Source of the DNA: an uncultured Actinomycetota bacterium
GTDB lineage: Bacteria > Actinomycetota > Aquicultoria > CAYFWW01
Direction: 5' to 3'
Length of the DNA stretch: 64,000 nucleotides
Assembly: GCA_964346985.1 (NCBI GenBank)
Contig: CAYFWW010000048.1
Span: forward strand, 291-64,290
How positions within the stretch are numbered: the first letter of the stretch is position 1; every line of letters starts with the position of its first letter. Position numbers and translations under genes: made by a program. The notes under the pieces are model-generated. The model did not search any database and was not told the DNA's origin. It saw nothing but the letters and a program-made list of their open reading frames with translations. Positions 44,443 through 61,551 of this stretch are shown here, in pieces.

Positions 44443-46332
44443 CTATTCATTTTTGTCCTTATCACTATCTTTTTCTTCTTCTTCGTCGATGATTTCATAA
44501 TCAGCTTCTTCAACTACTTCTTCTCCTTGATCTTGAGAACTTGAGCTGGTACCGCCTCCGCCACCAGCAGCACTTGCTTGAGCTTGTTGCTGTTGTTGGG
44601 TTTGCGTTTGGTAAACCTGCTCAGCTAACTTATGAGAAGCCTGCATTAAATCATCTGTCGTCTGTTTAATCTTTTCGATGTCATCGCCTTTCAGCGCTTC
44701 CTTAACATCGTTTATAGCCTTTTCAATTTTTTCCTTTTCTTCCTGTTTGAGCTTATCTCCTATTTCGCGAATTGACTTTTCGGTAGAATATACCAAGTTA
44801 TCAGCATTGTTCCTTATTTCGGCTTCTTCCTTCTTGCGTGAATCTTCTTCAGCATGAGCTTCAGCTTCCTTAATCATATCTTCTATTTCTTCATCTTTTA
44901 AGGCCGTTGTCCCGGTAATCGTTATCTTTTGTTGTTGCCCAGTACCAAGATCTTTTGCTGAGACATTGACTATACCATTGGCATCAATATCAAATGTAAC
45001 TTCAATCTGAGGCATCCCTCTAAGTGCAGGTGGTATACCAACCAGTTGAAAGCGCCCAAGGGTCTTGTTATAGGCAGCCATTTCCCGCTCACCCTGAAGG
45101 ACATGTATCTCCACACTTGTTTGATTATCTTCAGCAGTAGTAAATATTTCGCTCTTTTTAGTTGGAATTGTCGTATTTCTCTCAATCAATTTGGTAGAGA
45201 CACCGCCTTTTGTCTCAATACCCAAGGAGAGAGGAGTGACATCTAGTAAAAGGATATCTTTGACATCGCCTAAAAGCACACCTGCTTGTATTGCAGCTCC
45301 AACAGCAACAACTTCATCCGGATTAACCCCTTTATGTGGATCTTTTCCCGTTAAGTCTTTAATCAAATCATGAATAGCAGGCATTCTTGTGGCCCCGCCA
45401 ACCAGGATGATATGGTCAAGATCTTTCTTTTCTACCTTTGCATCTTTCATTGCTTGTTCGGTTGGTCCTTTGCACTTTTCAACCAAATCAGCTGTCATCT
45501 TTTGAAATTCAGATCTGTTTAAAGTCATATCCAAATGCTTTGGGCCTTCCTGATCAGCAGTTATAAAGGGCAGATTGATATTTGTAGTCATAGTTGTAGA
45601 TAATTCGCACTTGGCTTTTTCTGCAGCCTCTTTTAATCTCTGCAAAGCCATTTTATCCTGACGTAAGTCAATTCCGTTCTTTGCCTTAAAATCATCGGCC
45701 ATCCAGTCAATAATTCTCTGGTCATAATCATCGCCGCCTAAATGATTGTTTCCACTTGTTGCTTTTACCTCAAATACTCCTTCGCCAATCTCAAGGATTG
45801 AAACATCAAAAGTTCCCCCTCCTAAGTCAAAGACTAGTATTGTTTGATCATGCTCCTTGTCTAAACCATAGGCTAAAGCAGCTGCTGTTGGTTCGTTGAT
45901 TATCCTTAAAACCTCCAACCCTGCAATCTTGCCGGCATCCTTTGTTGCCTGCCGCTGACTGTCTTCAAAGTAAGCAGGAACAGTGATTACAGCCTTAGTA
46001 ATAGTTTCACCTATATAGGCTTCCGCATCCGTCTTTAATTTTTGTAAAATCATAGCTGAAATTTCCTGTGGAGAGTATTTTTTATCATCAATTTCAACTT
46101 TATGATCGGTTCCCATTTCCCTTTTTATCGAAGTAATAGTACGATCAGGATTGGTTATTGCTTGCCTTTTGGCAACTTCACCTACCAGCCGTTCACCATT
46201 TTTAGAAAAGGCCACTACAGAAGGGGTAACTCTACCCCCCTCAGCATTCTGAATAACAGTAGATTCTCCACCTTCTAATACTGCCACACAAGAATTTGTT
46301 GTACCTAAATCGATACCTATAGCTTTAGCCAT
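44443..46332 (-). CDS. dnaK: Chaperone DnaK
   Basis: [18 protein letters not shown] and the canonical Hsp70 architecture. Confidence 0.95.
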
Positions 46333-46373
46333 AATGTAATCTCTCCTTAATTAATATATATAAGTATGTTAAT

Positions 46374-46402
46374 ATTATAAAATCTAAGCCTATTATTGTC
46401 AA
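46374..46402 (-). promoter_or_regulatory. Consensus sigma70 promoter TTGACA-N17-TATAAT upstream of dnaK
   Basis: Minus strand: TTGACA (reverse complement of 46397-46402), 17-nt spacer, TATAAT (reverse complement of 46374-46379). Flanked by direct repeats TTAACATA. Confidence 0.6.
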
Positions 46403-46469
46403 ATATGTTAAATATCGACTATAAGGTAGTATTTTTTGAATTGATATTGATTGAATTATTTTTGTTTTG

Positions 46470-47612
46470 TTAAGAAGAATCTGAAGTTAAAACTTCGATG
46501 AATTTCTCCCAGGATTTTTTTACGGAATTTATCTCAGAACAAGGATTTTTCACTGCTGTTTCTTTTGAAAAAAAGTCAATTATGCCACTGGCTAAAGCTT
46601 TTACATTTTTGGGGGGAATCAACCTATCGCCAGCTTCAAAGATAACTTCATCAGCTAAACCACCTACATTTGTTGTAATAACAGGAAGATTAAACTTATG
46701 AGCCTGTGGAATAATTCCGCTCTGAGACGCGGTTCGGTATGGTAAGACTATTACATCTGCTGCTCGAAAATAATAATATACCATTTCATTGGGTATATAC
46801 CTGTCTATTATTGTTACATTATTAGAAATATTTATTTCTTCTATCTGGCGAATGTATTTGTCAATGCTTTCATAAAACTCGCCAGCAATTAATAATCTTA
46901 GATTTGGAATTTTAGCTATAGCTGCCGGTAATGCATTTAATAAGTCAGATAAACCCTTGTATGCTCTTATATAACCAAAAAATAGAATTATCTTTTCGTC
47001 AACCGAAAGACCAATTTTTTGCCGGCATTCCTTTATACTGATTTCATTTTTTGCCATAAAGATTGTATAGACTGGGTGCCTAATTTTACATAATTTCGAG
47101 GCAGGTAATTCTTTGACAATTTTCTTGGCCACAAAACTCGACAGCGCTATTAAAATATCAGCTTGCCTGAGAGTTGGTTTTGTAAAGAAACTCCAGAACC
47201 AACCCATTTCATGTGATGAATAATTATGACAGATAAAAACCAATTTTTGAACATTTTTTCTTTTTAGTGAACGACAAATATAATATAGAGGTATCGATAA
47301 AAACGGGTGCCACCACTGAATAACAACAATTCTATATCCTTCCTTAATAATTTTTTTATATGTGCTCCGCCAAGTAAATGGATTAAAAGGGCTTAAGATT
47401 CTTTCTGTTTCAATCTTGAAATAGTTCTTGCTTAGATCATATTGAGTTTTTCCCGGGAAGAAAATTTTAGGATACAATATGCGGTAATTAAATATTTTAG
47501 CTTTTACATCTTTCTCCAGATTAAGAAAGTAGGATAAATGATTTGAAAAATGAGCAATTCCTCCACGATATGGATAAGCCGGGCCAATTACTGCAATCCT
47601 CTTTTTCATCAC
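46470..47612 (-). CDS. Glycosyltransferase family 4 (GT-B) protein
   Basis: C-terminal GT1/GT4 domain with EX7E-like region. Confidence 0.75.
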   Translation of the reverse strand: MMKKRIAVIGPAYPYRGGIAHFSNHLSYFLNLEKDVKAKIFNYRILYPKIFFPGKTQYDLSKNYFKIETERILSPFNPFTWRSTYKKIIKEGYRIVVIQWWHPFLSIPLYYICRSLKRKNVQKLVFICHNYSSHEMGWFWSFFTKPTLRQADILIALSSFVAKKIVKELPASKLCKIRHPVYTIFMAKNEISIKECRQKIGLSVDEKIILFFGYIRAYKGLSDLLNALPAAIAKIPNLRLLIAGEFYESIDKYIRQIEEINISNNVTIIDRYIPNEMVYYYFRAADVIVLPYRTASQSGIIPQAHKFNLPVITTNVGGLADEVIFEAGDRLIPPKNVKALASGIIDFFSKETAVKNPCSEINSVKKSWEKFIEVLTSDSS

Positions 47613-47706
47613 TTTCCCCTAGAAAGATTATATATAAAACAATAAATTAAGCATAATTATTTAGATAAAATTAATGATTGGGAAAAAATGAATAATAACC
47701 TAATTA

Positions 47707-48885
47707 TTAGGTTCTTCTTTGTAACTTATCTCTTTGTGCTATATCTATAATTTGATTGTTTCTTCTTTCAACTAGTATATCTTTTGCTGTTTTTCCCTCG
47801 TTGACAGAACTTCGGCGATCAATTCTGTATACCTGTGAAAGCACATAATCTTGAGTTTGTTTATTGTCGCTTGTGGACCTTATTAATTCAGCAATCAGCC
47901 CAGTTAAAATAATTTGGAGGCCAGTTATTAGCAAAAGTACTCCCAGCATAAGCAATGGCCTATTTCCTATGCTTTGATTAAATAAAATTTTAGCTCCGGA
48001 TAAATAAAGCAAAACTGCCGACCCAATTGAAAACAAAGATATTCCAAATAAGCCAAAAAGATGTAAGGGTCGTCCATAATAACGAGAGATCATAACGACT
48101 GTAAATAAATCCATAAATCCTCTATAGAAACGATTATATCCATATTTAGAATGCCCGTGGACCCTAGGATGGTGCTTCACTGGAACCTCAGTAATAATAT
48201 AACCTTTGTAGGCTGCCAATACTGGGAAAAAACGATGCATCTCACCATAGCAATGTGGAATAAGGTTTCTTATCACATTCCACCGATATGCCTTTAGACC
48301 AGAGTTTATATCGTGCAAATTCACTCTGGATAATTTGCGCTCCATATAATTAAATACTTTAGAAGGAAATGTTTTAGAAACCGGATCTTGCCGCTCCTTT
48401 TTCCAACCAACGACCACATCATAACCTTCTTCAATCTTCTGAATCAGTTTAGGTATTTCAGCTGGCTCATCTTGAAGGTCTGCATCCATAGTGACAATGA
48501 TATTACCCGTTGCAAAAGTAAATCCGCTAGCAAAAGCTGACGCTTTTCCAAAGTTGCGTCTATGCCTTAAAAGTTTTACTTCCTCATCCTTAGAGGCTAT
48601 TTCAGTCAAAATCAACCAAGAATTATCTGTTGAACCATCATCAATAAAAATTATTTCTGCATTTAATCCTAATAGATTGATGGTATCCTTCATTTTTTTA
48701 TATAGCGGCCGAAGGTTCTCCGCCTCATTTAGAAGTGGGATAACTATCGATAAGTCTAGTGGTTTTTTCAAACCTTCTTCCTCTGGGTACTGTATTCTTA
48801 TGTTATTTAAGTGTGATTTCAAGAAGGACTCCTTGTTTTCTTTTATATTTTTCTCACCCATTATATTCGTCAGATATTGAATCAA
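47707..48885 (-). CDS. GT2 polyprenyl-phosphate hexose synthase (Dpm1/GtrB/ArnC-like) with C-terminal TM helices
   Basis: LSIVIPLLNEAENL...IFIDDGSTD...DADLQD GT-A motifs, followed by 2-3 TM helices. Confidence 0.8.
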   Translation of the reverse strand: MIQYLTNIMGEKNIKENKESFLKSHLNNIRIQYPEEEGLKKPLDLSIVIPLLNEAENLRPLYKKMKDTINLLGLNAEIIFIDDGSTDNSWLILTEIASKDEEVKLLRHRRNFGKASAFASGFTFATGNIIVTMDADLQDEPAEIPKLIQKIEEGYDVVVGWKKERQDPVSKTFPSKVFNYMERKLSRVNLHDINSGLKAYRWNVIRNLIPHCYGEMHRFFPVLAAYKGYIITEVPVKHHPRVHGHSKYGYNRFYRGFMDLFTVVMISRYYGRPLHLFGLFGISLFSIGSAVLLYLSGAKILFNQSIGNRPLLMLGVLLLITGLQIILTGLIAELIRSTSDNKQTQDYVLSQVYRIDRRSSVNEGKTAKDILVERRNNQIIDIAQRDKLQRRT

Positions 48886-49047
48886 CCAATATCAAAAATC
48901 ATTATAACACTAATTGTGTTTATTTGCACACATTTTTTTATATTATTAACTATTCAATATATTTTTTCATCATCCTAAAGGATTACATATACTATTTCAA
49001 AAAAAACTGTGTTAAACTTTAAATCTTATATATATTAAAAACTATAA

Positions 49048-50232
49048 ATGATGGAAGATATATCAAAAAAAACAAAAAAAATCAAGATTATATTCCTGGG
49101 ACGATATATAGTCTATATTTTATTGGCCCTTTTAATTTTATCTATCCCCCTTACCATTATCCTTAATGGTGGTGATAGCAATAAAAGAATGGGCTTAAAC
49201 ATCATAAATGAAATAAGAAAAAAAGTGAAACCCCGACCTATAGCCAAGAAAGTAGAACCTCTCGAAAATATGGTATATTTTGGTGTCTACCAAGAAGATG
49301 CTCCCTTTAAAATAAAAGACCTAGATGATTTTCAAAAGAAATCCGGAAAAGAAGTTTCCATCTTGATGTGGTATCAGCCATGGTCAGATTCTGGACGCAA
49401 TATCTTCGATCAAAAGGTTGTCGACTTCTTGATTAAAAAGGGTGTGACTCCGATGATTTCCTGGGAACCATGGGACCCAGGAAGTGATCCTAAAAAATTA
49501 AAGAATCCTGCCAGTCAACCTAAATACAGGCTTAAAAACATAATAAATGGTAATTTCGATTCCATAATTAAAACATGGGCAAGAGATATTAAAAGCTACG
49601 GGGGGCCAATAATGCTTAGGCCGCTTCATGAAATGAATGGGACTTGGTATCCATGGGGAGGGCCAGTAAACAGCAATCAGCCTGAAGAATTCATTGAAGC
49701 ATGGAGACACATCTATAATATTTTTAAAAAAGAGGGAGCAACAAATGTAACCTGGGTTTGGAGTGTAAATAACCAAAGCGTTCCTGCCGAGAAATGGCAT
49801 AAAATTTCTATTTATTATCCGGGGGACGAATATGTTGACTGGACTTCAATTAGTGGTTTTAATTGGGGAACGTCAAGTGAATGGAGCAAATGGAAAACAT
49901 TTAATGAAGGTTATATTGATATTATTAACGAACTTTCTAATATTAAAAAGCCTATTATTATCTCAGAAATAGGCTGTGTAGAAAATGGTGGGGATAAATC
50001 TAAATGGATAATTGAAGCATTCCAAAATATTAAAGAAAAATACCCAGGAATAAAAGGTATAATTTGGTATAACCGTAGAGATTCAAAAAATCAGGACTGG
50101 AGGTTTGATACTTCAACCGATAGTGCTATAGCTTTTCGTCAAGCAATCAGTGATCCATATTTCTCAAATCAGACTACCCCTGCCTTAAAAGACTTTCTTA
50201 GAAGATGGATAGGCACGTCTATCAAGAAATAA
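49048..50232 (+). CDS. GH26-like (clan GH-A, beta-mannanase-type) glycoside hydrolase, N-terminal membrane anchor
   Basis: RPLHEMNGTWYPWGG (acid/base region), WVWSVN, YYPGDEYVDW and IISEIGC (nucleophile region). Confidence 0.7.
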   Translation: MMEDISKKTKKIKIIFLGRYIVYILLALLILSIPLTIILNGGDSNKRMGLNIINEIRKKVKPRPIAKKVEPLENMVYFGVYQEDAPFKIKDLDDFQKKSGKEVSILMWYQPWSDSGRNIFDQKVVDFLIKKGVTPMISWEPWDPGSDPKKLKNPASQPKYRLKNIINGNFDSIIKTWARDIKSYGGPIMLRPLHEMNGTWYPWGGPVNSNQPEEFIEAWRHIYNIFKKEGATNVTWVWSVNNQSVPAEKWHKISIYYPGDEYVDWTSISGFNWGTSSEWSKWKTFNEGYIDIINELSNIKKPIIISEIGCVENGGDKSKWIIEAFQNIKEKYPGIKGIIWYNRRDSKNQDWRFDTSTDSAIAFRQAISDPYFSNQTTPALKDFLRRWIGTSIKK

Positions 50233-50278
50233 AAAGAAGCTATTAATTCTCTAGATTGAATCAATTCTTAAAAAAAGT

Positions 50279-50659
50279 TTATTTATCTGGAAATTTTGAA
50301 ATGATTTCTTGTGGTGAAAAATTAGTTTGCCTTATTACTTCTAAAAACTTCTCAATATGGTTTAAGCTAATATCGGGAGGATTATAAGTAAATACTTCCG
50401 GTAATTCCTTCCCTTGTGATATTTTTTGGAGAACATTCTTTTTAATCAATTCGTCTACCGATTTTTCTAAATCCTTCTTGTCTCGACCTAAGAATACTGA
50501 CAATCTTTCCACTGTAAATAATGTATAAGGATTATAATGATAAAACTTAATCAGCTCCCAGCTTATATTTGAATCACCCAGATAAGCAACGTATTTTCTG
50601 ACAGACTCATCTATGTTGTTTACAAGTTCTATTACTTTTTTACCTCTTTCGTTTTTCAC
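50279..50659 (-). CDS. Hypothetical small protein, translationally coupled partner of the KaiC-like ATPase
   Basis: 126 aa, no recognisable motif; 4-nt overlap with the upstream ATPase gene. Confidence 0.4.
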   Translation of the reverse strand: MKNERGKKVIELVNNIDESVRKYVAYLGDSNISWELIKFYHYNPYTLFTVERLSVFLGRDKKDLEKSVDELIKKNVLQKISQGKELPEVFTYNPPDISLNHIEKFLEVIRQTNFSPQEIISKFPDK

Positions 50660-51405
50660 AGTTTTTTCTCCGGCATCATAATTAACCTAGAGGAACCTGA
50701 TAGGATATTTTCTCTATTAATAAATTTATCTTTAATTAAAAAACCATTATTTCCAATCTCATAGCTTAAAATATCTAGACTGTGAGTGCTTCCCCTAATC
50801 TTCAATGCAACCATGGCCATGTCTATCTTACTGCCTGCTTCGACGTACTGCAGAAAAAAAACATTATCAACTGCATAAGCCAAAGGCGAATTAAGCAAAT
50901 TCTCATGGCTAAACAGTCTTGGTACATCATAAGTATAAACTGAAGTTAAATTTAATCTTCTGCAGCTATTTAATATACTATTATAATGATTTCTTAAAGA
51001 GAACGGTTCTTTATATAACATTTTTAAATTGGAAATAGAATCAAAGGCAATTATTTCAGGATTATTTTCATCAACTATCCTATCAAAAAAGCCCCCTGTT
51101 TTCTCCAATTCCATTTGAAGAATTTCTGGGGAAGTAAAAATAATCTTCAATTTCTTTTCATCTTCAAGCCGTCGGAAATCCCAACCAAAATTTAATGCAT
51201 CACGATATATAATTTCAGGAAATTCCTCAAATGTTACCAGTATTGCCGGGGAATTTGAATAGATAGCTCCATTATAAAGAAACTGTAGGCACATAGTTGT
51301 TTTGCCTGTTACTGGAGGTCCTGCAATCAAAGTAGTACTTTTACGATGAAACCCGCCGCCTATAATACTATCGAGTTTCTTTATACCAGTAGATATTTTA
51401 TCCAT
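50656..51405 (-). CDS. KaiC/RadA-like single-domain RecA-superfamily ATPase (COG0467-like)
   Basis: Walker A GPPVTGKT, Walker B IIAFDSIS; KaiC-domain-like architecture. Confidence 0.6.
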   Translation of the reverse strand: MDKISTGIKKLDSIIGGGFHRKSTTLIAGPPVTGKTTMCLQFLYNGAIYSNSPAILVTFEEFPEIIYRDALNFGWDFRRLEDEKKLKIIFTSPEILQMELEKTGGFFDRIVDENNPEIIAFDSISNLKMLYKEPFSLRNHYNSILNSCRRLNLTSVYTYDVPRLFSHENLLNSPLAYAVDNVFFLQYVEAGSKIDMAMVALKIRGSTHSLDILSYEIGNNGFLIKDKFINRENILSGSSRLIMMPEKKL

Positions 51406-51480
51406 ATCCCCGATTTAGATTATATATTTATTATAAATTATATAGCAAAATCATTTTTAAGTTAAAATATTATTGTAATT

Positions 51481-52071
51481 ATGATTAAGAATTATAATAA
51501 TCTACTTAAGAATAAAGTAAAGAGCGAGCTCGCCTATTTAAATAATAAATTGGATAAAATTTCATCAAAGTGGAGGGGGACGGGGCCTGTAATCCAAGCC
51601 GGAAACCCTATGGCAAGTTTATTTTTATTAGTAGAAATTCCTGTTTTAACCTCGGATGGCAAAGCAGAACTACTTTCAAATCAAGCAAAGAAAGCCTTAT
51701 ATTCATCTCTCGAAAGATTAAATATTAGCAAAGAATACATCTACATTAGTTCACTATATAAGTTCTATTTCGATTCCGGTTTTAAGCCTGGAATCCAAGG
51801 CTTAAATAATCTTAAGGAGCTTTTAGAACTTGAGATATCAATAATAGAACCCGAAGTGCTGATTGGATTTCACCCAAATGTAACTAAATGGCTTAAAGAT
51901 ATCTATCAGAATAATTTCCAATTACATCAAGGCAAAGATAAAAATTGCTTACTGCGTGGTGAGACAATCTATTTTGAAACTGTAAGTTTTGAAGAAGCTT
52001 TAAAGGATATTAATCAAAAAAGGAGGCTTTGGAAAGTATTAGTTAAAGTCGCTAAACTAATACTTGATTAG
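51481..52071 (+). CDS. Divergent UDG-superfamily (family 4/5-like) protein with non-canonical motifs
   Basis: Architecture matches UDG family 4: GTGP..A...FLLVE.P (motif A region; GEAPG replaced by EIPVL) and GFHPN (motif B HPS-like). Confidence 0.35.
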   Translation: MIKNYNNLLKNKVKSELAYLNNKLDKISSKWRGTGPVIQAGNPMASLFLLVEIPVLTSDGKAELLSNQAKKALYSSLERLNISKEYIYISSLYKFYFDSGFKPGIQGLNNLKELLELEISIIEPEVLIGFHPNVTKWLKDIYQNNFQLHQGKDKNCLLRGETIYFETVSFEEALKDINQKRRLWKVLVKVAKLILD

Positions 52072-52079
52072 AACTTAGA

Positions 52080-52262
52080 TTATCCTTTCAGTTCTATGCA
52101 CTCCATCGTACATTCATCTACGCATTGCTCACAACCATCACAATCATTTGTTCTCACAGGAATACATATATCACCATCAAATTCATACACTTCATTTGGG
52201 CAAATATCAACACAAACTCCACAACCTGAACATTCACCAAAATCGACAACCGGTTTCGTCAT
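52080..52262 (-). CDS. 4Fe-4S ferredoxin (2 x CxxCxxCxxxCP)
   Basis: CSGCGVCVDICP and CDGCEQCVDEC clusters. Start set at MTKP (52260-52262), which follows a GGGA RBS. Confidence 0.75.
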   Translation of the reverse strand: MTKPVVDFGECSGCGVCVDICPNEVYEFDGDICIPVRTNDCDGCEQCVDECTMECIELKG

Positions 52263-52368
52263 CTTTATTTCAATCCCTTTGAATAGTTTTAAAACAAGAA
52301 TATATTGTAATAGAAATCTATAATTTAACAAGCCAGCCTTTATAAAATTATCTATATTTCAAATTAAT

Positions 52369-54297
52369 TTAGGCAAGCTGGTTTTTTTCAAAATCTAAGA
52401 GAATTTTTTCAATCTCCTGAGCAAATTCTTCCCAATTCAGTTTTTTAGCTTTAGAGTATGCCTTGTCTAACTCTTTCTTAGTTTTAGAATAATCACCAAT
52501 TAAATAATAAAATCTGCATAATTCAAGTTGAAAGGTTAAAGATAACTTAGGATCTTTAATTAAACCAATAATCATTTGAAAGCTGGAAATCGCTTCCTTA
52601 TATGAACCCATTTCAAATTGATCATAGGCTTTATGTATTAAGTCATTAATTATTTTGCTTGTATATTCCGACTCATCGATGAAAGTTGAAACTTTTTTTT
52701 CCAACTTATGAAAAGATACTTCTTTCTCTTCTTTCTCTTCAACCAGAGGGCGAAGATCCTCTCTAATTATCATTTGAATAACTTTATCTTTATCAGCCAC
52801 TTCTTCTTGAACAGTTGAAATTTGACTTGCTCCAGATAATCTAATAAATCCACTTAGCAGAACTATATGGACAATAGCAAAAGCTACATTGTTCATAATA
52901 GAAGGATTGGCCCCAAACCATAACATACCGAAAAATATAGCAATAATCATTAACAAAGTCATAAAGATTTGAGGATATATATGTGGAGTTATGCCTTTTA
53001 TATCAACTCCTTTAGGAGTAACAACAAAACCAAGTTTTCTACCAAAAATAATAGACAGCCAGGCCTTTATATGGACTGGGAACGAACAAAGCGAAAACCA
53101 TAAAGCTCTAAATGTCAGCGTGCCATTGGCCGCATATGCCAGGAAGACAATGTTTATAAAGAGATACGGGAAAAAATGCAACGGATACATATCAGCTTCT
53201 TTTATTGGTTTGATTCCAAAGAAAAGCATGAGTATAGGCATTATTGCATAAATCAAGTAAGCCCATCCTGTAAACCAGTATATTCCGCTTAGAAAATATT
53301 GAATCTTTTGAGGAATTGTTAGATTCTTCAATAATGTATTTTCCTTTATAAATATCTCTAAACCTCCCCGAGCCCATCTAAGCTGCTGGCTAAAATATGA
53401 ACCTACATCTTCTGGTCCTAGGCCTTCTGCCAAAACCTCTGGGTAATAGACTGATTTCCAGCCACGCTCGTGCAGTTTGATGGATAATAATAAATCTTCT
53501 GTAATGGATTCTTCTGGGAGATAACCTATCTGGCGCAGTGATTCGCGGCGAAATACAACATTAGTTCCACAACAAAAAGCTGCGCCTAGCTTATATTTTC
53601 CACGGCAAATTGGGCCATAAAATAACTCTTGTTGTTCAAATGCCCCAGCTGCAATTTTATTCTCCGACTTATTCTTATAAAATTGAGGTGTCTGAACAAA
53701 AGCAATTTTTTCATCTTTGAAAAAACCTAATGTTTTTAAAAGAAACCCAGGATAAGGTGCATGATCACAATCAAAAAAAACAACATAGTGCCCATCTGTC
53801 TGTTTAAGTGCATTATTAATATTTCCAGCCTTGGCTCCCTTACGATCAGGTCTTGAAAAGTATTTAACATGGTATCGAGAAGCTAGTTTTTTAATCATAT
53901 CTGAGGGGCCGTCATCAAGAATATATATCTCTTTATTTGGATGGATAATATTACTTACTGCCTTAATTGTATTTTCTACAATTTCAATAGGTTCATTATA
54001 AACAGGAATAAGAATATCAACCGGTTTAAACCAGATATCTTTGGAAATCTTCACCTGGTCTGGCCATTTCTGATTCAAAGCAGTATACCAAAATCCACTG
54101 ATCTGGATAAAATTAAATAACTCAGCTGAAATCAGTAATATATACAAAACAATATGATCAGGCCGTTTAGAATCCAACATCCAGCTGAAATAATATATGG
54201 CTGCAAAGATTCCAAGAATTGTAAAAACTTTCAAGGAACGTAGGTATCTACTTCTTTCACTTTCAATAGTAAAATTTCTATTTTCCATAAATCTCAT
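52369..54297 (-). CDS. Cellulose-synthase-like processive GT2 (BcsA/CesA-type D,D,D,QxxRW) lacking a PilZ domain, with a novel C-terminal module
   Basis: DDG, DCDH, TED and QQLRW motifs and multi-TM C-terminal half. No RxxxR/DxSxxG PilZ motifs. The C-terminal 86 aa resemble the C-terminus of the 57834..58646 protein. Confidence 0.8.
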   Translation of the reverse strand: MRFMENRNFTIESERSRYLRSLKVFTILGIFAAIYYFSWMLDSKRPDHIVLYILLISAELFNFIQISGFWYTALNQKWPDQVKISKDIWFKPVDILIPVYNEPIEIVENTIKAVSNIIHPNKEIYILDDGPSDMIKKLASRYHVKYFSRPDRKGAKAGNINNALKQTDGHYVVFFDCDHAPYPGFLLKTLGFFKDEKIAFVQTPQFYKNKSENKIAAGAFEQQELFYGPICRGKYKLGAAFCCGTNVVFRRESLRQIGYLPEESITEDLLLSIKLHERGWKSVYYPEVLAEGLGPEDVGSYFSQQLRWARGGLEIFIKENTLLKNLTIPQKIQYFLSGIYWFTGWAYLIYAIMPILMLFFGIKPIKEADMYPLHFFPYLFINIVFLAYAANGTLTFRALWFSLCSFPVHIKAWLSIIFGRKLGFVVTPKGVDIKGITPHIYPQIFMTLLMIIAIFFGMLWFGANPSIMNNVAFAIVHIVLLSGFIRLSGASQISTVQEEVADKDKVIQMIIREDLRPLVEEKEEKEVSFHKLEKKVSTFIDESEYTSKIINDLIHKAYDQFEMGSYKEAISSFQMIIGLIKDPKLSLTFQLELCRFYYLIGDYSKTKKELDKAYSKAKKLNWEEFAQEIEKILLDFEKNQLA

Positions 54298-55895
54298 TCA
54301 CTAAATAAATAAACATCAACATTTGGAAATTTTTTCTTAACTTCATTCGTATATTTATATCTTAAGATAGTCCTGCTTCTGAAAGCTGCCCTTTTCACAA
54401 AGCTTCTCTCTTCGAAGCTGGTAATCATCCAAACCCTTTTTTTGTTCTTGTAAGCCTTGTTTAAATCAAAGGATAGTTCATCCATGCTAGACCTTATTGA
54501 ATTATCGGCAGGCTCAACCCTTGGAAAAGCAATCGCTGGGACTTTACCCTTATAGTAATAAAGGAAAACGTTCTTTATATAATAAGGAACGTATATTACA
54601 GCATCATCCTTTTCAAGGTTTTTTTGAACATACGATATCGCTTTTTGGTTATCATAACGAATTCGATTATTGAGGCTAAAAGACTGGTCTGCCCAAAAAA
54701 TAATCGCGCTAATAGCTAAAATAATCATAAAAAGGCGATAATGATTTTTATCACTTATTGAAGAGATTATACAACCAAAGAATACATAGAGTGGAATAGT
54801 ATAGATAGCAATATATCTAACTATAAACATTTCACGATAAAGACCAATAATATACATTAATAAAAGAGGGACCACAATCCCAATAATAAGATAAAGATAT
54901 TTCAGGCCGGGTGGCCTAACAAAATAGACAAGGATAAATAAGATCAACATTAATAAAGGCCATAAGGAAACAAGGTTTGCAGTTATGTCATCGCTATGGA
55001 AACCAAATAGCGACTGGGTAAAAACCATAAGGATTACATTAAAATTATAGTTACTTCCACTGAGTAAATGTTCTTCTGCAATTCCGACTAAATGCCTTGA
55101 AACCAGGACAAACCTTACCCATGGAAGAAAAAGTATTAATATGGAAACCTGAGAACTTATCCAGATACCAGATGTTTTTAATCTTTCTTTCCAGGTTGAG
55201 TAACTTTTTTTATCCTCCTCAAGGTTCGCTTTATTCTGTATAGAGCGAATAAACCAAAAAATAAAGAAAATATTTTGAAAGACAATCATTAATACTCCGA
55301 AATAAGATGTAAATAACATTAAAGTTGTAAACAGAACATATAATAACCAATAAACCAATTTTGCTTTCTCGAAAAGCTTAAACCCAAAATAGAAAGCAAG
55401 TGTGGCCCAGATTAAGAGAATAATATACATCCTTGCATCCTGTGAATACCAAATAAAAAATGGGGAGAAGCTGAATAAAAAAGCTGTGGTGAAGCCTATT
55501 CTTTCATTGAATAATGACTTACAGACAAAATATACCACTAAAACTAAGATCAATCCAAAGAATAATGACATTGACCTAACAGCAAAAGGGCTCTTTCCAA
55601 AAAAACTCATCCAATAATGAAGAGAAAGATGAAAGAGTGGCGGGTGAACGCCGTGTGCCATTGTTGAAATAATGTCTCTTGGGCTCTGGCTTGCTTGTAT
55701 AATGCTTGTGCACTCATCTAACCAAAGGTCACGGGAGTTAATTCCTACCAACCTTAATACAAAAGAATTTATTAGAAGAAATATAACACCAGCAATCTCA
55801 ACTTTAGCCGAATATATTTTTCCAATAATATTTTTCAAATAAACACTTTTTCCTTTTTGAATGTTAATAATATTTTCTACCATAAGAGTCAACAA
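54294..55895 (-). CDS. GT-C fold glycosyltransferase (PMT/ArnT/GT39-GT83-like)
   Basis: More than 10 TM helices; DE motif (WLDEC) in the first extracytoplasmic loop; translationally coupled to the BcsA-like gene. Confidence 0.7.
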   Translation of the reverse strand: MLTLMVENIINIQKGKSVYLKNIIGKIYSAKVEIAGVIFLLINSFVLRLVGINSRDLWLDECTSIIQASQSPRDIISTMAHGVHPPLFHLSLHYWMSFFGKSPFAVRSMSLFFGLILVLVVYFVCKSLFNERIGFTTAFLFSFSPFFIWYSQDARMYIILLIWATLAFYFGFKLFEKAKLVYWLLYVLFTTLMLFTSYFGVLMIVFQNIFFIFWFIRSIQNKANLEEDKKSYSTWKERLKTSGIWISSQVSILILFLPWVRFVLVSRHLVGIAEEHLLSGSNYNFNVILMVFTQSLFGFHSDDITANLVSLWPLLMLILFILVYFVRPPGLKYLYLIIGIVVPLLLMYIIGLYREMFIVRYIAIYTIPLYVFFGCIISSISDKNHYRLFMIILAISAIIFWADQSFSLNNRIRYDNQKAISYVQKNLEKDDAVIYVPYYIKNVFLYYYKGKVPAIAFPRVEPADNSIRSSMDELSFDLNKAYKNKKRVWMITSFEERSFVKRAAFRSRTILRYKYTNEVKKKFPNVDVYLFSE

Positions 55896-56032
55896 ATATC
55901 AAAATTTATTAAACATGATTATAATCGGAATTTTAATATTTTTCCTAAATCCTCATTTCTTTATCTAAATAACCACAAATAATATTTTTTTTCCAAAAAA
56001 CTAAAGTTTTCTAGCCTATAACCGATACATAT

Positions 56033-56125
56033 AGTGGTTGGCAATCACCCGAAAGGGCAAACCCATCTAAAGGTGGGGACGCAAAACCAAGGATCCGAAT
56101 GGATAGCCTGGTTGCCGAAGGTGAG
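56033..56125 (+). ncRNA. c-di-GMP-I (GEMM) riboswitch
   Basis: Conserved GEMM-I blocks: GGGCAAACC, P2 hairpin CCCAUC-UAAA-GGUGGG, GGGACGCAAAACC junction, 3' GGUUGCCGAAGG (compare the GEMM block GGGUUACCGAAGG). GC-rich island in AT-rich DNA directly 5' of the GH26-like gene; its 3' end overlaps the SD (AAGGUG). Confidence 0.75.
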
Positions 56126-56129
56126 AGAG

Positions 56130-57692
56130 TTGAAAACAAATTATAAATTTAAAAAAATATTCTTAATCATAACCAGCTTCTTAATGTTACTTCTGTTTGC
56201 CAGTCCCGTCACAGCCCAGACAACATTACCTGAACCACTCAGAGGAAATACACTTATTGGTTATTTTGTTCCAGGATCCCCGGCAACAAATAACCTAATA
56301 GATTTAGAGACAAAAACCGATCGCAAGGCCGATATTGTTTTATACTATCAAGACTGGACATATGGTTTAATCAATCAGAATGTTCGAAATGTTTTGAATC
56401 ATGGCTCAATTCCACTGCTAACTTGGATACCATGCAAAGGCGGAGCTGGGACAAACCAACCTGATTATCGTTTAAAAAACATTACAAATGGTAAATTCGA
56501 CCAATATTTAAGAGAATCTGCTAGAGCTGCCAGAAACACTGGAGAGACAATCTGGTTAAGGCCTTTCCATGAGATGAACGGTAACTGGTCTTCGTATTCA
56601 GGTACAACCAACGGAAATAGTCCAGAAGATTTTATCCCAGCCTGGCGGCATATAGTTGATATCTTTAGACAAGAAGGAGCAGATAATGTTTTATTTGTCT
56701 GGTCTCCCAATACAAATTCAGTACCTGATACTCCCGAGAATGCCATTAGTGTATACTTCCCGGGTGATGACTATGTAGATATTATTGGAATCGATGGATA
56801 TAATTGGGGCACAAGCCAATCTTGGTCTCATTGGAACTCATTTTATGACACTTTTGTTAAATCGTATAAAACTTGCACTTCTCTAAGCAAAAAACCAATA
56901 ATCATTGCTGAAACAGGCTCGTCAGAAAAAGGTGGAGACAAAGCCGCATGGATTAAAGATACTTTTAACACAATATATAATGATTTTCCACGAATTAAAG
57001 GGCTAGTCTGGTTTAATATCAATAAAGAAACGGACTGGAGAATCGAATCTTCAATAGCTAGTCTAGAATCTTTCAAAAGTATAGTTGCAGAAAACGCAAA
57101 TAGTAAAAATATTATACAATTTGTAATGAAGTTCAACAAAAATACAAGCCAAGATAGAATTGAACAAATACTATATGATTACAACTTAACAGTTATATCC
57201 GGGCCTTCAAAAAATAACTACTACTATTTAGAGACTCAACCGGGAATAAACTTCAATAAACTTGTTTCAGCTCTCTCTGGACTTCCAGAAATTACCAGAA
57301 TAGACCGTAATTATTCTTATCGTGTAAATACAAGTACTGGGTTAGGAGCTGGAGAATCCATAAATAATATATTGGCGGCAAATGATAATTATAAGGGTGG
57401 AGCCAAAGCAGAATCTTCCTTCAGCCAAGCAGCCAACCAAACCTATAATACTTCCCCTATTTTGGAAGATTCTGCTTCACCTCTTTTGGCAAAAGAAAAT
57501 TTATTACAATCATCTTTTAAAATAGATTTTCCAAATAGTCTTTTCAGCAATAGTTTCGCTGTTAATATCTATAAAAAAACAGATAAAGAATCAAGTTACC
57601 TGCCTAATCTGAATCAATTTTCCGCTTTAATTATGCTCATTATAGTTTCCGGGACTTCAGTCCTACTTTATAAACAAAAAATAATGGCATAA
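56130..57692 (+). CDS. GH26-like glycoside hydrolase paralog with signal peptide and C-terminal extension
   Basis: RPFHEMNGNWSSYSG, FVWSPN, YFPGDDYVDIIGIDGYNWG and IIIAETGS motifs. Start set to TTG 56130 (RBS AAGGTG; signal peptide KTNYKFKKIFLIITSFLMLLLFASPVTAQ). The track ORF (from 56034) reads through the riboswitch. Confidence 0.7.
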   Translation: MKTNYKFKKIFLIITSFLMLLLFASPVTAQTTLPEPLRGNTLIGYFVPGSPATNNLIDLETKTDRKADIVLYYQDWTYGLINQNVRNVLNHGSIPLLTWIPCKGGAGTNQPDYRLKNITNGKFDQYLRESARAARNTGETIWLRPFHEMNGNWSSYSGTTNGNSPEDFIPAWRHIVDIFRQEGADNVLFVWSPNTNSVPDTPENAISVYFPGDDYVDIIGIDGYNWGTSQSWSHWNSFYDTFVKSYKTCTSLSKKPIIIAETGSSEKGGDKAAWIKDTFNTIYNDFPRIKGLVWFNINKETDWRIESSIASLESFKSIVAENANSKNIIQFVMKFNKNTSQDRIEQILYDYNLTVISGPSKNNYYYLETQPGINFNKLVSALSGLPEITRIDRNYSYRVNTSTGLGAGESINNILAANDNYKGGAKAESSFSQAANQTYNTSPILEDSASPLLAKENLLQSSFKIDFPNSLFSNSFAVNIYKKTDKESSYLPNLNQFSALIMLIIVSGTSVLLYKQKIMA

Positions 57693-57833
57693 TTAAAAGA
57701 ACATAAATTTATTCTTTAAACACCCCTTTAATTTAAAACGCTTATGATAGAATTACTAATTGAATTATTTTTAACATTTCATTATTATTTGTATTGTTAA
57801 ATAAATTAGAAAGATAAACAGAAAGGTTTTTTA

Positions 57834-58646
57834 ATGGGTCAGATATTAGCAATTGCAATTGCTTTGATTTTCATTTTTGGGTTACTATTACATTTGGTAT
57901 TACGCTTTATATTTAGGATAAATGCTTTAAGAGTTCTGCTGGCAGCTACTATTTCTTCTGTAATCATTCTATTAGTTGTTGTCTTTGTACACCAAAGATT
58001 TAGTTTAAGCAATACAGAACTTTTAATTTTAATATTTCCATTGGCAATTGTTGCTTCTTTTATAATTGCCTGGGCTGAGCAAAGATTTTTAAAGATTTCA
58101 CAAGTTACTCGTGAAATAACACCAACATCCCCAAATATAAAAACTGTACCTTCCGAAATTAAAGATGATATTTCCGAAACTCTAAAAAAAGAGGTTTCAC
58201 CTATTAATAAAACGAAACCGGAACCTCAACCCGTAGCTCCTACACCTATTAAGGAACCTGTTAAAGAAGAAGCCTTGCCTCCAAAAGAAAAGGAAATATA
58301 CCGAGATTTAGTCAAAGAAGAAAAAAAAGAGGTATTCTCAGAAGAATATAGAGGAAAACCTGATGAAGCCTTAGATGTCCTTATTGAGGATGCTTATTCT
58401 CATGTAGATTCTGGAGCAATTGACTCAGCAATTCAATCCTTTCGTTTAGCAATTGTCTTCGCTGAAGACCCAGAAGTGCTAATTCCTTTACAAGTTGAAT
58501 TGGGCAGGCTCTGGTTTATGATCGGTGAAACCAGTAAAGCAGCAAATGAGCTAAAAAAAGCATATGATCTTGCTAAACAAGTTGGATTACAAGATAAAAT
58601 AAGTGAAATCGGTTCTCTTCTAGAAAGCCTTTCTGAAGAGGAGTGA
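57834..58646 (+). CDS. Membrane protein (3 TM) with Lys/Glu/Pro-rich linker and a C-terminal about 80-aa module shared with the BcsA-like GT
   Basis: C-terminal AYSHVDSGAIDSAIQSFRLAIVFAEDPEVLIPLQVELGRLWFMIGETSKAANELKKAYDLAKQ aligns without gaps to the BcsA-like C-terminus (AYDQFEMGSYKEAISSFQMIIGLIKDPKLSLTFQLELCRFYYLIGDYSKTKKELDKAYSKAKK). Confidence 0.55.
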   Translation: MGQILAIAIALIFIFGLLLHLVLRFIFRINALRVLLAATISSVIILLVVVFVHQRFSLSNTELLILIFPLAIVASFIIAWAEQRFLKISQVTREITPTSPNIKTVPSEIKDDISETLKKEVSPINKTKPEPQPVAPTPIKEPVKEEALPPKEKEIYRDLVKEEKKEVFSEEYRGKPDEALDVLIEDAYSHVDSGAIDSAIQSFRLAIVFAEDPEVLIPLQVELGRLWFMIGETSKAANELKKAYDLAKQVGLQDKISEIGSLLESLSEEE

Positions 58647-58745
58647 TACTAGAATTTACAAATCAATTTTTTTTATTTAATAATATTTGAATTTGTTTTC
58701 AAGAAGAATTATATTTATAATCAACTGAAAGGAGATGTTTTTTTA

Positions 58746-59627
58746 ATGAAACAAAGCAATGAAATCATTGGTTTACCAATAGTTTCAATATCAGAAGGTA
58801 TTAAGACAGGAATAGTTCAAGGAACAATTATTGACCCCCAAACAAAAGAAGTAGCTGCTCTACTTGTTGAAGACGAAGAGTGGTACAAAGGGGCAAAAAT
58901 TGTACCTTTTACAGCAATTCGGAGCATTGGTGCAGACGCTTTGATCATCGATCGAAATGATCAAATTACAGCAGCTTCATCCAATAGTGAAATTGAAGAA
59001 CTTATTAATAGAGCAATAAAAATAATTAATACTCAAATCATTACAACAAGCGGTAAAAATATTGGTGAGGCATCTGAATATATAGTCGACCAAGAAACAG
59101 GAAAAATAGTTTCTGTAGAAATTACCGCTGCTGAAGGGCATCCGTCATCTATTGAAGTAAATCGAATTCTTACTTTCGGAAGAGACGTAATGATTGTTTC
59201 AGAAGAGGGGGAAGCAGCAATTCAAACTGATTTTGAAACTCAAGAAGCTGCTGCTCCAACTGAAATTGAAACCGAAGAGGCTCCCGTGGAAGCAGAAGAT
59301 GTTCCCTACACAAGCACACCTACTTTTGAAGAGGTGAAAAAGGAAGAAGAAGATGTTTCTACGCCGCATCTTCCGGAAGAGGAGTCAGCTGGTACAGCAG
59401 AACCTGCTCCCGCTGAAGCAGAAAAACCATCTGAAGAGGCTGCTAAAAAAACTTTAGAAGAAAGACAACATGACTTTCTAATAGGAAAGACTATGCGTAA
59501 AGATGTTATCGCTGATGATGGTACAGTTATAATCAAAGAAGGAGATACTGTTAACGAAGAAGTAATCCAAAAGGCAAAAGAGAATAATAAATATCTTGAA
59601 CTAACTTTTTCAATAAAAAGAAGTTAG
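58746..59627 (+). CDS. PRC-barrel domain protein with acidic low-complexity linker
   Basis: N-terminal PRC barrel (IGLPIVSISEGIKTGIVQGTIID), a second PRC-like segment at the C-terminus, and an E/A/P-rich middle. Confidence 0.6.
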   Translation: MKQSNEIIGLPIVSISEGIKTGIVQGTIIDPQTKEVAALLVEDEEWYKGAKIVPFTAIRSIGADALIIDRNDQITAASSNSEIEELINRAIKIINTQIITTSGKNIGEASEYIVDQETGKIVSVEITAAEGHPSSIEVNRILTFGRDVMIVSEEGEAAIQTDFETQEAAAPTEIETEEAPVEAEDVPYTSTPTFEEVKKEEEDVSTPHLPEEESAGTAEPAPAEAEKPSEEAAKKTLEERQHDFLIGKTMRKDVIADDGTVIIKEGDTVNEEVIQKAKENNKYLELTFSIKRS

Positions 59628-59658
59628 TTTAATTCATTCTAAAATAAATCAAAAGTAT

Positions 59659-60183
59659 TCATGAATAATCCGCATCTTGGTTTTCTTCGAGGTTATTAAG
59701 TTCAGAAATTGAAGAAATTCCCATTTCTTTTAATTTTGTCAACATGTCGATTACATCTTCCATTAGCCCTTTTTGTTGTTCGTTTTTCTGAAGAACATCC
59801 CTGACAATAGATTTAGCTTCTACCCTTACGTTACCAAATTGGTCGAGGAATGAATCAAAGAGTAGTGTATCTAAATTACCATAGGCCATCTGGTAACCCC
59901 GCTCTTGAGCCTCCATAATCAGTAACAGCATCCATATGTACTTAGCCTCTGACATAGACTCCATAAAAAATCTTGGAAGATGATAAATTGAAAATTGTTC
60001 TTTATCAATTCCTAACTTTACACTTTCATCGATCATTTCACTTAACAACTGCTCATTGGTTTCAGTAAAATTTCGAACAAACTCAATGACCCCTTTTGAG
60101 TTTGCTTTTTCAAACTTCTCCCCAAATTCTTTATGGGCTTCAATTCTAAGTTTTTCTAGAAGTGACAATTTATTCCACCTCAC
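59659..60183 (-). CDS. Hypothetical protein
   Basis: 174-aa ORF, no recognisable motifs. Confidence 0.4.
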   Translation of the reverse strand: MRWNKLSLLEKLRIEAHKEFGEKFEKANSKGVIEFVRNFTETNEQLLSEMIDESVKLGIDKEQFSIYHLPRFFMESMSEAKYIWMLLLIMEAQERGYQMAYGNLDTLLFDSFLDQFGNVRVEAKSIVRDVLQKNEQQKGLMEDVIDMLTKLKEMGISSISELNNLEENQDADYS

Positions 60184-60309
60184 AAGATTTATTAAAAACT
60201 ATTCTAGCAAGTTTTCTATGAATATATAAATATAATCTTGAATATTTTTTTTCATAAACGGTATACTATCTGAAAATAATAATTTTTTTCTACAATTGGA
60301 GGAATATTT

Positions 60310-60483
60310 GTGAACAACAATAATCTCTTAAGCGTTGATGAAGCTGTTAAAAAATTTAAATTAAAAAAACCAACTCTTTTAAATCTTTGCAGGAGGGGGA
60401 AAATTCCCTTCATCATGAAAAACAGTTCTTATTTTTTAATGGATAAGGACATTGAAAACTATATTTCGGAAAGAAAAAAATAG
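60310..60483 (+). CDS. Excisionase/HTH_17-family DNA-binding protein (57 aa, GTG start; below track size cut-off)
   Basis: VNNNNLLSVDEAVKKFKLKKPTLLNLCRRGKIPFIMKNSSYFLMDKDIENYISERKK fits the HTH_17 pattern (LLTV.EAA..LGVS..TIY.L...G.LPA.KIG...R....DLE.YL). GGAGG RBS 7 nt upstream; TTGAAT-N18-TATACT promoter at about 60238-60267. Confidence 0.55.
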   Translation: MNNNNLLSVDEAVKKFKLKKPTLLNLCRRGKIPFIMKNSSYFLMDKDIENYISERKK

Positions 60484-60496
60484 GGGGTGACACAAT

Positions 60497-60706
60497 TTGG
60501 ATGAAGAGACCAAAAGTATGTTAGTAGAGATTATAAAGAAACTAGACGTATTTGAAGCTAAGCTAGATGATATCCAATCATTCTTAAGTAGTATAATGCT
60601 TAATACCGGCAATATAGCCAATGTAGATCAAAATATTTCTAATTTGGTTGAAATAATGGAGAAGCTGGTCGAAGAAGTAGAGGAGGAAGCAACCGACCAA
60701 CAATGA
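60497..60706 (+). CDS. Hypothetical acidic coiled-coil protein
   Basis: 69 aa; coupled downstream of the HTH gene. Confidence 0.35.
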   Translation: MDEETKSMLVEIIKKLDVFEAKLDDIQSFLSSIMLNTGNIANVDQNISNLVEIMEKLVEEVEEEATDQQ

Positions 60707-61520: not shown

Positions 61521-61551
61521 CTTAATATTTCCTCCTTTTAGTTCGTTCTAT

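Follow-up and report, generated by a model that had tools for sequence, protein, structure and literature searches.

A 64,000-nucleotide stretch of DNA from an uncultured actinobacterium (contig CAYFWW010000048.1; the whole stretch that was analysed is called the window in what follows) carries a glycan island in which a BcsA-family processive glycosyltransferase of family 2 (GT2), referred to here as the synthase, is encoded next to a membrane glycosyltransferase of the GT-C type. Together with them stand two glycoside hydrolases of family 26 (GH26 #1 and GH26 #2), the second of which is preceded by a riboswitch for cyclic di-GMP (c-di-GMP). We read this island, at a probability of roughly 0.6, as a synthase-dependent cell-surface or exopolysaccharide system in which c-di-GMP control is directed at a hydrolase. 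Systems of this kind are usually pictured as a c-di-GMP-activated synthase accompanied by periplasmic helpers. Island genes were called from mechanical open reading frames (ORFs) combined with Pfam and NCBIfam profile searches, and the riboswitch was taken from Rfam. All genes that a first-pass annotation of this DNA had named were recovered at their positions by the profile searches (Table 1).

The synthase and its GT-C partner

The first-pass annotation had described the synthase as a processive-type enzyme without PilZ, and both parts of this description hold. The catalytic motifs D128-D129-G130, DCDH at 176-179 (with D176 and D178), T266-E-D268 and Q304-Q-L-R-W308 as well as the gating loop F424-VVT-P-K429 (FVVTPK) are found in the translation, and DDG, DCD, TED, QQLRW and FVVTPK are invariant across 26 synthase homologs. 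The BcsA structures 7lby and 4hg6 align to residues 27-504 with E values of 1e-57 to 1e-53. Overall, a catalytic and channel core (residues ~1-490) is followed by a cytoplasmic helical extension (~495-642); in the AlphaFold2 (AF2) model the core reaches a predicted local distance difference test score (pLDDT) of about 90, and residues 494-642 are all-helical at low confidence. For PilZ, no match to PF07238 was obtained with Pfam, the BcsA alignment stops near residue 504 and the C-terminus is the all-helical region just described. Likewise, PilZ is found in none of the 120 best synthase homologs, most of which comprise about 500 amino acids (aa) and end directly after the last transmembrane (TM) helix. 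BcsB occurs neither in the island nor in the related loci examined.

The C-terminal ~100 residues of the synthase are paralogous to the C-terminus of the small membrane protein encoded at 57834-58646 (29-34% identity, E 4e-15 by BLASTP and alignment) and give a weak NCBIfam match to BamD and tetratricopeptide repeat (TPR) proteins. A profile of this TPR-like domain, searched against 1.84 billion representatives, retrieved only nine proteins at E<=1e-10, with no other synthase among them; weaker hits are multi-repeat TPR-like proteins. Because of these few hits, the domain is regarded, from its sequence, as a lineage-specific addition located where PilZ would sit. The small membrane protein lies downstream of GH26 #2 without a predicted terminator in between and is conserved only in the lineage of the window, that is, in the close strains L001 and L082, which are 98-100% identical to the window. 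The domain profile also retrieved P0273, a protein of 823 aa with eight tandem copies of this rare domain.

The stop codon of the GT-C gene overlaps the start of the synthase gene (ATGA). Related loci were collected by a synthase-alignment scan with one genome per species, yielding 80 loci in which the GT-C gene was sought by tblastn. It is directly adjacent to and co-oriented with the synthase gene in 76 of them (71 upstream, 5 downstream), and in three of the remaining four the synthase lies at a contig edge. These loci stem from Coriobacteriia, Solirubrobacterales, Acidimicrobiia, Nocardioidaceae, Micromonosporaceae, Chloroflexota and two phyla of the Candidate Phyla Radiation (CPR). Hence, members of this PilZ-less synthase family are almost always encoded next to a GT-C enzyme, whose linkage is to the synthase and not to the GH26 genes. 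Beyond this pair, the nearest clade (L002, L003, L004, L086, L087 and L150) keeps synthase, GT-C, GH26 #1 and a riboswitch-preceded GH26 #2, so that the co-conservation on which the first-pass reading depended is found.

The catalytic Asp-Glu motif of the first external loop (D60, E61) does not vary among 77 synthase-adjacent GT-C orthologs; W58, PPL and W149-Y150...R155-M-Y157 show almost no variation. The AF2 model of the GT-C protein (pLDDT 81.5, predicted template modelling score 0.82) finds ArnT (5ezm/5f15) as best match in Foldseek with TM-scores of 0.56-0.58, followed by STT3/PglB/AglB and protein mannosyltransferases (PMTs), all at a probability of 1.0. Judged by these residues and the modelled fold, the protein looks like an active enzyme rather than an inert scaffold. 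Apparent GT-C-synthase fusions and N-terminal extensions in loci of 63-75% GC were rejected by a reading-frame check as artefacts of naive ORF calling. In three loci of Acidimicrobiales, Aeromicrobium and Solirubrobacter (L058 6948-9911, L064 6732-9941 and L046 6408-9899), the GT-C ORF has an extra N-terminal region of ~500-700 aa without Pfam match; at ~70% GC or more (75% measured in L064), this region could stem from a misplaced start codon or represent a gene of its own upstream.

GH26 hydrolases

Both hydrolases score far above the PF02156 cut-off of 20.2 bits (Table 1) and are, over the whole domain, 41-42% identical to their closest characterised match, the lichenase CtLic26A, which is the GH26 module of Clostridium thermocellum CelH; for GH26 #1, the match covers residues 92-368 at 180 bits and E 4.6e-52. 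In contrast, mannanases match the two proteins partially, with ~40 bits and E values of ~1e-10 or worse, so that both stand nearer to the lichenase than to the mannanase and xylanase branches. The suggestion of a mannan-type polymer in the first-pass annotation, drawn from the family assignment, is not supported and is the weakest part of that interpretation. Both catalytic glutamates, which we take to be E109 and E222 in CtLic26A, are kept, since LRP(L/F)HEMNG and II(S/A)E(I/T)G align to it (LRPLHEMNG and IIISEIG in GH26 #1). GH26 lichenases have been described as a branch apart from the mannanases (PMC6556568).

GH26 #1 bears its TM anchor at residues 21-39. GH26 #2, which is 40% identical to GH26 #1, begins with a signal peptide, followed by the catalytic domain (~50-325), a C-terminal region specific to the lineage and a TM anchor near the C-terminus (496-514). 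Its mechanical start, GTG 56034, was rejected: this ORF reads through the riboswitch, and the conserved Shine-Dalgarno (SD) sequence and the homologs give TTG 56130, which opens a typical signal peptide. Public gene calls of this protein disagree as well, with 502 aa in L001 (5156-6664) and 552 aa in L082 (6598-8256). The tail of GH26 #2 (57600-57692) comprises YLPNLNQ, a hydrophobic helix and YKQKIMA, and resembles a sortase sorting signal, though its motif is non-canonical. Sortase and IF2_N domains occur together in a protein encoded at 13799-15064 (-). Orthologs of GH26 #2 have no such sorting-like tail, and that of L002 ends in cell-wall-binding-like repeats.

A neighbour-joining (NJ) tree divides the hydrolases into one group of GH26 #1 orthologs, which adjoin the synthase or are fused to it, and another of GH26 #2 orthologs, the riboswitch-preceded copies, with CtLic26A nesting beside the latter. 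Because the tree separates these groups, the two genes are ancient paralogs whose duplication is older than the split between the window lineage and its GC-rich, Coriobacteriia-like relatives. In relatives, the GH26 #1 copy comes directly after the synthase, to which it is coupled in translation, or is joined to it in natural synthase-TM-GH26 fusions, which contain one TM helix (P0069, P0077, P0101, P0103, P0106 and P0109); in L086, the genes of synthase and GH26 #1 ortholog overlap at the synthase stop codon. A GH26-seeded metagenome scan gave 80 loci, many of them short, and in 18 of these a BcsA-like gene lies beside GH26, distributed over several synthase clades. Some of these clades are only 30-34% identical to the window synthase and occur without GT-C.

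CPR relatives carry a glycoside hydrolase of family 8 (GH8) in the equivalent position, with the gene order GH8-synthase-GT-C(-GT2), as in L071 (4454-8700) and L077 (8779-13876) from Blackburnbacteria and Levyibacteriota, the synthase being 40% identical to that of the window. On this evidence, the module appears to have spread laterally between CPR and Actinomycetota. Since GH8 stands there where GH26 would, the hydrolase-synthase-GT-C triad is a recurring unit, and by their family assignment both hydrolase types, lichenase-type GH26 and GH8, point to a beta-glucan.

The c-di-GMP riboswitch

The aptamer directly before GH26 #2 exceeds the Rfam gathering threshold of 59 bits with an E value of 2.7e-13 (Table 1), in line with the earlier proposal that c-di-GMP input reaches the second hydrolase at the RNA level. 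In the Rfam scan, it was also found directly upstream of the GH26 #2 orthologs of L002, L004, L086, L087 and L089, in L150 and L003 before shortened downstream ORFs that are likewise GH26, and in the two close strains L001 and L082. No aptamer was detected in 31 other GH26 loci or in seven synthase loci without GH26. A regular-expression search for the riboswitch core had reached only the close strains and missed the GC-rich relatives that Rfam then found. A weak match to the IS128 RNA (E 0.54) was dismissed.

Eight aptamer sequences, including that of the window and leaving out L089, were aligned. Pairing amounts to 95-100% in helices P1a and P2, where five compensatory pairs occur, and the interhelical C-G pair is preserved; L001 and L082 contribute no covariation because they are 98-100% identical to the window. 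Most aptamers score best on the c-di-GMP-I-GGC variant model, that of L003 on RF01051 (clan CL00126). The variant is presumably named for a G in place of the intercalating A47, and this consensus G at model column 37 is replaced by A in all eight sequences. Columns 10, 37 and 75, which we take to correspond to G20, A47 and C92 of the riboswitch Vc2, are G, A and C throughout. In Vc2, these nucleotides contact the ligand (PMC4744006). Because column 37 is A and not G, and the contact positions read G/A/C, the RNA is, to go by its binding-site nucleotides, a canonical c-di-GMP sensor, and the variant model may capture a phylogenetic group rather than a binding-site change.

The expression platform is very short. 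All eight sequences end in the invariant CCGAAGGUGA, followed 5-9 nucleotides later by the start codon and then by a signal peptide. The 3' strand of P1 passes directly into the SD AAGGUGA; in the Rfam model, the outermost base pair of this helix uses the first G of GGUGA on its 3' side. The 5' flank UCACC (56045-56049) can pair with GGUGA (56120-56124), as it does in the centroid fold, and in four loci (the window, L002, L004 and L150) a CAC(C/U) immediately ahead of P1 lengthens this helix to take in GGUG. Across homologs, pairing in the P1 extension amounts to 64%. The register of the P1/SD helix was inconsistent between RNAduplex predictions. Class I c-di-GMP riboswitches are known as both ON and OFF types. 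Since the helix that the ligand should stabilise contains part of the SD, an OFF switch is the direction that we favour with some confidence. Vc2 itself has been named an off-switch (bioRxiv 10.1101/617340).

Proposed lipid-linked sugar supply

Apart from the synthase, the island encodes a second GT2 of the ArnC/PgfS/GtrB/Dpm1 type, in which an N-terminal GT-A domain is followed by a C-terminal membrane hairpin (TM helices 276-294 and 313-331). Its NCBIfam scores for ArnC (172.9 vs 529 bits) and PgfS (148.6 vs 500 bits) are both below the equivalog cut-offs. Orthologs of this GT2, 42-45% identical, are encoded close to the module in L002, L004 and L122, and L107 shows only a partial match of 33-39% at the contig edge. 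In a known scheme, a GT-A enzyme, a flippase and a GT-C enzyme cooperate in glycosylation outside the membrane (PMC13390465). From its family and the neighbouring ArnC-like GT2, we infer that the GT-C enzyme uses a polyprenyl-phosphate donor; the synthase product is its presumed acceptor.

The statement of the first-pass annotation that no Wzx is present is true of the window but not of its relatives, in which a MOP/Wzx-type flippase is encoded directly upstream of GT-C (L002, L086, L087 and L150) or beside the ArnC-like GT2 (L004 and L107). The pair of GT2 and GT4 recurs upstream of GT-C-synthase in loci of Acidimicrobiia and Nocardioidaceae, and the order GT2-GT4-(pyruvyl-transferase-like)-GT-C-synthase is seen in those of Acidimicrobiales and Aeromicrobium. 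The GT4 of the window has no close ortholog in the nearest clade and is a peripheral, variable member of the island. A YdjC-like carbohydrate deacetylase is encoded beside flippase and ArnC-like GT2 in L004 (12641-13477, -) and L107 (2872-3675, -), with no counterpart in the window; a hexosamine, either N-acetylated or deacetylated, may be the sugar transferred in those organisms.

Proposed mechanism and alternative readings

Taken together, the BcsA-family synthase would polymerise a beta-linked hexose chain and export it through its own membrane channel, the likeliest product being a beta-glucan, perhaps one in which 1,3 and 1,4 linkages are mixed. At the outer face of the membrane, the GT-C enzyme would most likely decorate or attach the emerging chain with a polyprenyl-phosphate sugar supplied by the ArnC/Dpm1-like GT2, and the membrane-anchored GH26 #1 would process the chain as BcsZ does for cellulose. 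Because the synthase is without a c-di-GMP receptor of its own, c-di-GMP would act on the degradative arm: it would close P1, hide the ribosome-binding site and lower the translation of GH26 #2, as expected of a probable OFF switch. At high c-di-GMP, little secreted hydrolase would then be made and polymer would accumulate; at low c-di-GMP, GH26 #2 would be produced and the polymer trimmed or released. A more far-reaching version is put forward only tentatively, at clearly less than even odds. In that version, GT-C and the PilZ-less, BcsB-less synthase would make up a machine of two enzymes that has so far gone unrecognised and that occurs widely in Actinomycetota and also in CPR; in it, the lipid-sugar-dependent GT-C would modify or anchor the product outside the membrane. 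In one clade, c-di-GMP would set the amount of polymer by turning off translation of a secreted lichenase-type hydrolase, via a riboswitch holding the ribosome-binding site, rather than by activating synthesis, and the product could be a mixed-linkage or branched beta-glucan.

Several observations weigh against the reading of a hydrolase-controlled synthase system or parts of it. The synthase stays far below the NCBIfam cut-offs of its models (TIGR03030: 294.3 vs 699.1 bits; NF008558: 219.7 vs 992), and in the window GH26 #1 and the synthase lie on opposite strands with four unrelated genes between them. No flippase for the lipid-linked sugar, GtrA-type or other, is encoded in the window. The identity of the product leans on 41-42% identity of the hydrolases to one characterised lichenase. 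As to the RNA, the top Rfam model is the GGC variant, the 5' complement of the SD is weaker in L086, L087 and L003 and thus clear in only four of seven distinct lineages, and covariation in the P1 extension is precluded because its 3' strand does not vary. Moreover, energy models gave similar SD accessibility with and without the aptamer enforced and did not separate ON from OFF.

This last result leaves room for an ON switch, by which c-di-GMP would induce GH26 #2 as an enzyme needed for productive synthesis or export, much as BcsZ promotes cellulose formation. The riboswitch and its association with the gene would hold equally, the energy model favours neither direction, the weak 5' complements in three lineages fit, and both kinds of class I switch exist. 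However, with the outermost P1 pair taking in the first G of GGUGA and CAC(C/U) continuing P1 over GGUG in four of the loci, the ligand-stabilised fold should occlude the SD and not free it, and no conserved alternative anti-SD that the ligand could release was found; an ON switch is accordingly rated as unlikely, if not negligibly so. Less probable still is that GT-C and the Dpm1/ArnC-like GT2 constitute a protein O-glycosylation pair, comparable to actinobacterial Ppm1/Pmt or streptococcal Pgf, which would act on secreted proteins such as the Pro/Thr/Ala-rich linkers of the GH26 #2 orthologs and not on the synthase product. The PMT_2 match of GT-C, the PMT structures among its fold matches, the PgfS match of the GT2 and the long PAPTP-type linkers in the GH26 #2 orthologs of L004, L086, L087 and L150 would agree with this, but GT-C tracks the synthase and not GH26 (most of the 76 loci with an adjacent pair are without GH26), its gene overlaps that of the synthase, and its best TM-score is to ArnT.

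As regards the polymer, plant CslA enzymes of GT2 make mannan. Most characterised GH26 members are beta-mannanases (PMC13390465, PMC6556568), so that a beta-mannan or glucomannan trimmed by mannanases, as proposed in the first-pass annotation, has precedent on its side. Yet the full-length likeness to CtLic26A against partial mannanase matches, the place of CtLic26A beside the GH26 #2 group and the finding that the corresponding place in CPR synthase loci is taken by GH8, to which the cellulases of bcs operons belong, make it improbable. We give very little credence to the notion that the cell uses its GH26 enzymes to feed on plant or algal glycans from outside and that their genes stand near a synthase by coincidence. 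GH26 is classically catabolic, and 62 of the 80 GH26 loci lack a synthase in the available sequence, many contigs being short; against this stand the gene fusions and overlapping stop and start codons, the BcsA-like neighbours from several synthase clades, the retention of two orthologous paralogs together with the synthase, and an island in which Pfam and NCBIfam searches detected neither sugar transporters nor catabolic genes. A synthase-dependent system with a c-di-GMP-controlled hydrolase thus remains the preferred reading.

Comparison with known systems

The closest general parallel is offered by bacterial cellulose synthase operons (BcsA-BcsB-BcsZ, types I-III), with which the island shares a processive GT2 bearing D,D,D/QxxRW, a TED finger helix, an FxVTxK gating loop and its own TM channel, as well as a dedicated hydrolase encoded alongside (an endoglucanase in bcs). 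It differs from them in the absence of PilZ, BcsB and BcsC, in the use of GH26 instead of GH8, in the GT-C partner and in a synthase score below the NCBIfam BcsA cut-off (294 vs 699); moreover, c-di-GMP would act via RNA on a hydrolase and not allosterically on the synthase. The Streptomyces CslA-GlxA-CslZ system for hyphal-tip glucan (PMC11022532) is, likened by description, also actinobacterial, PilZ-less and BcsB-less, with an unconventional partner and an associated hydrolase. There, however, the partner is the copper radical oxidase GlxA and not a GT-C enzyme, and neither riboswitch nor GH26 is involved. Also by description, BgsA from Sinorhizobium meliloti and RiGT2 from Romboutsia ilealis (PMC10374906) are comparable as BcsA-like GT2 enzymes that make mixed-linkage beta-glucan, the substrate of lichenases. 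BgsA likewise has no PilZ and nonetheless responds to c-di-GMP, which it binds by its own C-terminus, and it pairs with BgsB, whereas RiGT2 has PilZ; neither comes with GT-C, GH26 or riboswitch.

CtLic26A (PDB 2bv9 and 2cip, among others) matches the hydrolases over its whole catalytic domain, including the HE-x-NG and AE/SE glutamates, but is cellulosomal and catabolic, while the GH26 proteins of the window are membrane-anchored or riboswitch-controlled and encoded with, or in relatives fused to, a synthase; their lichenase activity is predicted. In the three-component systems GtrB/GtrA/Gtr, CsbB/GtcA/YfhO and ArnC/ArnT (PMC13390465), a membrane-tethered GT-A/GT2 enzyme makes the polyprenyl-phosphate sugar that a GT-C enzyme transfers outside, as is proposed here; in contrast to these, the window has no GtrA-type flippase, its relatives have a MOP/Wzx-type one, and it is presumably the product of a BcsA-type synthase that accepts the sugar. 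With the class I (GEMM-I) riboswitch Vc2, the RNA shares aptamer fold, three contact nucleotides and the interhelical C-G pair (PMC4744006). It is set apart from Vc2-type riboswitches by its very compact translational platform with the invariant SD fused to P1, by its actinobacterial hosts and by the GH26 gene that it would regulate. None of the CslA-GlxA, BgsA/RiGT2 and Gtr/Arn systems combines a GT-C partner with GH26 paralogs and a riboswitch. To our knowledge, no characterised c-di-GMP riboswitch is known from Actinomycetota. Neither a system of BcsA-like synthase and GT-C nor one of GH26, synthase and riboswitch was found described in the literature, which agrees with the initial view of an undescribed system.

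A large, unstudied synthase family with a constant GT-C partner would join processive synthesis and lipid-linked extracytoplasmic transfer, which are normally treated apart. In addition, the island offers a testable case, in Actinomycetota, of c-di-GMP control over a matrix polymer exerted through a hydrolase at the RNA level, and it links the little-populated GH26 lichenase branch to endogenous glycan processing, giving a handle on bacterial mixed-linkage beta-glucan biology. A compact riboswitch and enzyme parts are thereby supplied for experiments.

Island layout and genomic context

Table 1 Features of the island and its surroundings (positions in the window)
Feature	Position	Strand	Support
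GT4 glycosyltransferase	46470-47612	-	Pfam Glycos_transf_1, 74 bits
ArnC/PgfS/GtrB/Dpm1-like GT2, polyprenyl-phosphate sugar synthase-type	47707-48885	-	Pfam, 117.8 bits; two C-terminal TM helices
GH26 #1, lichenase-type, N-terminal membrane anchor	49048-50232	+	PF02156, 61.8 bits
Four unrelated genes interrupting the island	50279-52331	mixed	
BcsA-family processive GT2 synthase, 642 aa	52369-54297	-	Cellulose_synt, 69 bits; TIGR03030, 294 bits
TPR-like helical domain of the synthase C-terminus, aa 540-642	52372-52680	-	BLASTP, AF2
GT-C membrane glycosyltransferase, ArnT/PMT/STT3-like	54294-55895	-	PMT_2, 52.7 bits
c-di-GMP class I riboswitch aptamer	56047-56120	+	Rfam RF03167, 65.7 bits
Expression platform (SD AAGGUGA 56118-56124; TTG start 56130)	56118-56132	+	
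GH26 #2, secreted, lichenase-type, 520 aa	56130-57692	+	PF02156, 55.1 bits
Small membrane protein, 3 TM helices, TPR-like C-terminal domain	57834-58646	+	
Cache/HAMP/GAF/HD-GYP membrane sensor, outside the island	32310-34127	+	Pfam HD_5 (1.2e-35), GAF, HAMP

The first-pass annotation had the two GH26 genes flanking the cluster. Both genes are present, but GT4 and the ArnC-like GT2 fall outside GH26 #1, so that the flanking arrangement does not hold for the whole island. Pfam and NCBIfam searches detected no Wzx/Wzy, BcsB or Pel/Psl domains in it. The genes inserted between GH26 #1 and the synthase encode a 126-aa protein overlapping a single-domain KaiC/RadA-like ATPase (50279-51405, -), a weak match to family-4 uracil-DNA glycosylases (UDG-like protein; 51481-52071, +) and an 83-aa ferredoxin-like protein (52080-52331, -). 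All four are confined to the window lineage (L001 and L082); missing from every related locus outside it, the KaiC-like ATPase and the 126-aa, UDG-like and ferredoxin-like proteins were dropped as possible regulators.

The window is chromosomal, with a purine operon, DnaB, ClpB and DnaK/DnaJ encoded, and has a GC content of ~35%; the host is a deep-branching, low-GC actinobacterium. Its DnaK shares 75-79% identity with proteins from uncultured, deep-branching Actinomycetota, the named matches being to Candidatus Aquicultor, Geothermincolia and Subteraquimicrobiales. The HD-GYP sensor, located 22 kb from the riboswitch, shows the motifs LLHDIGK and HHERVDGKGYP in its translation and is on these grounds a candidate c-di-GMP phosphodiesterase. 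With this sensor encoded in the window, the host possesses one or more candidate enzymes for c-di-GMP turnover. In the region of the island (46000-62000), the GC fraction is 0.32-0.35 compared with 0.36-0.40 upstream, the strand bias is lost, and a tRNA gene (61030-61101, -) follows just past the island. These features are compatible with an acquired or rearranged region.

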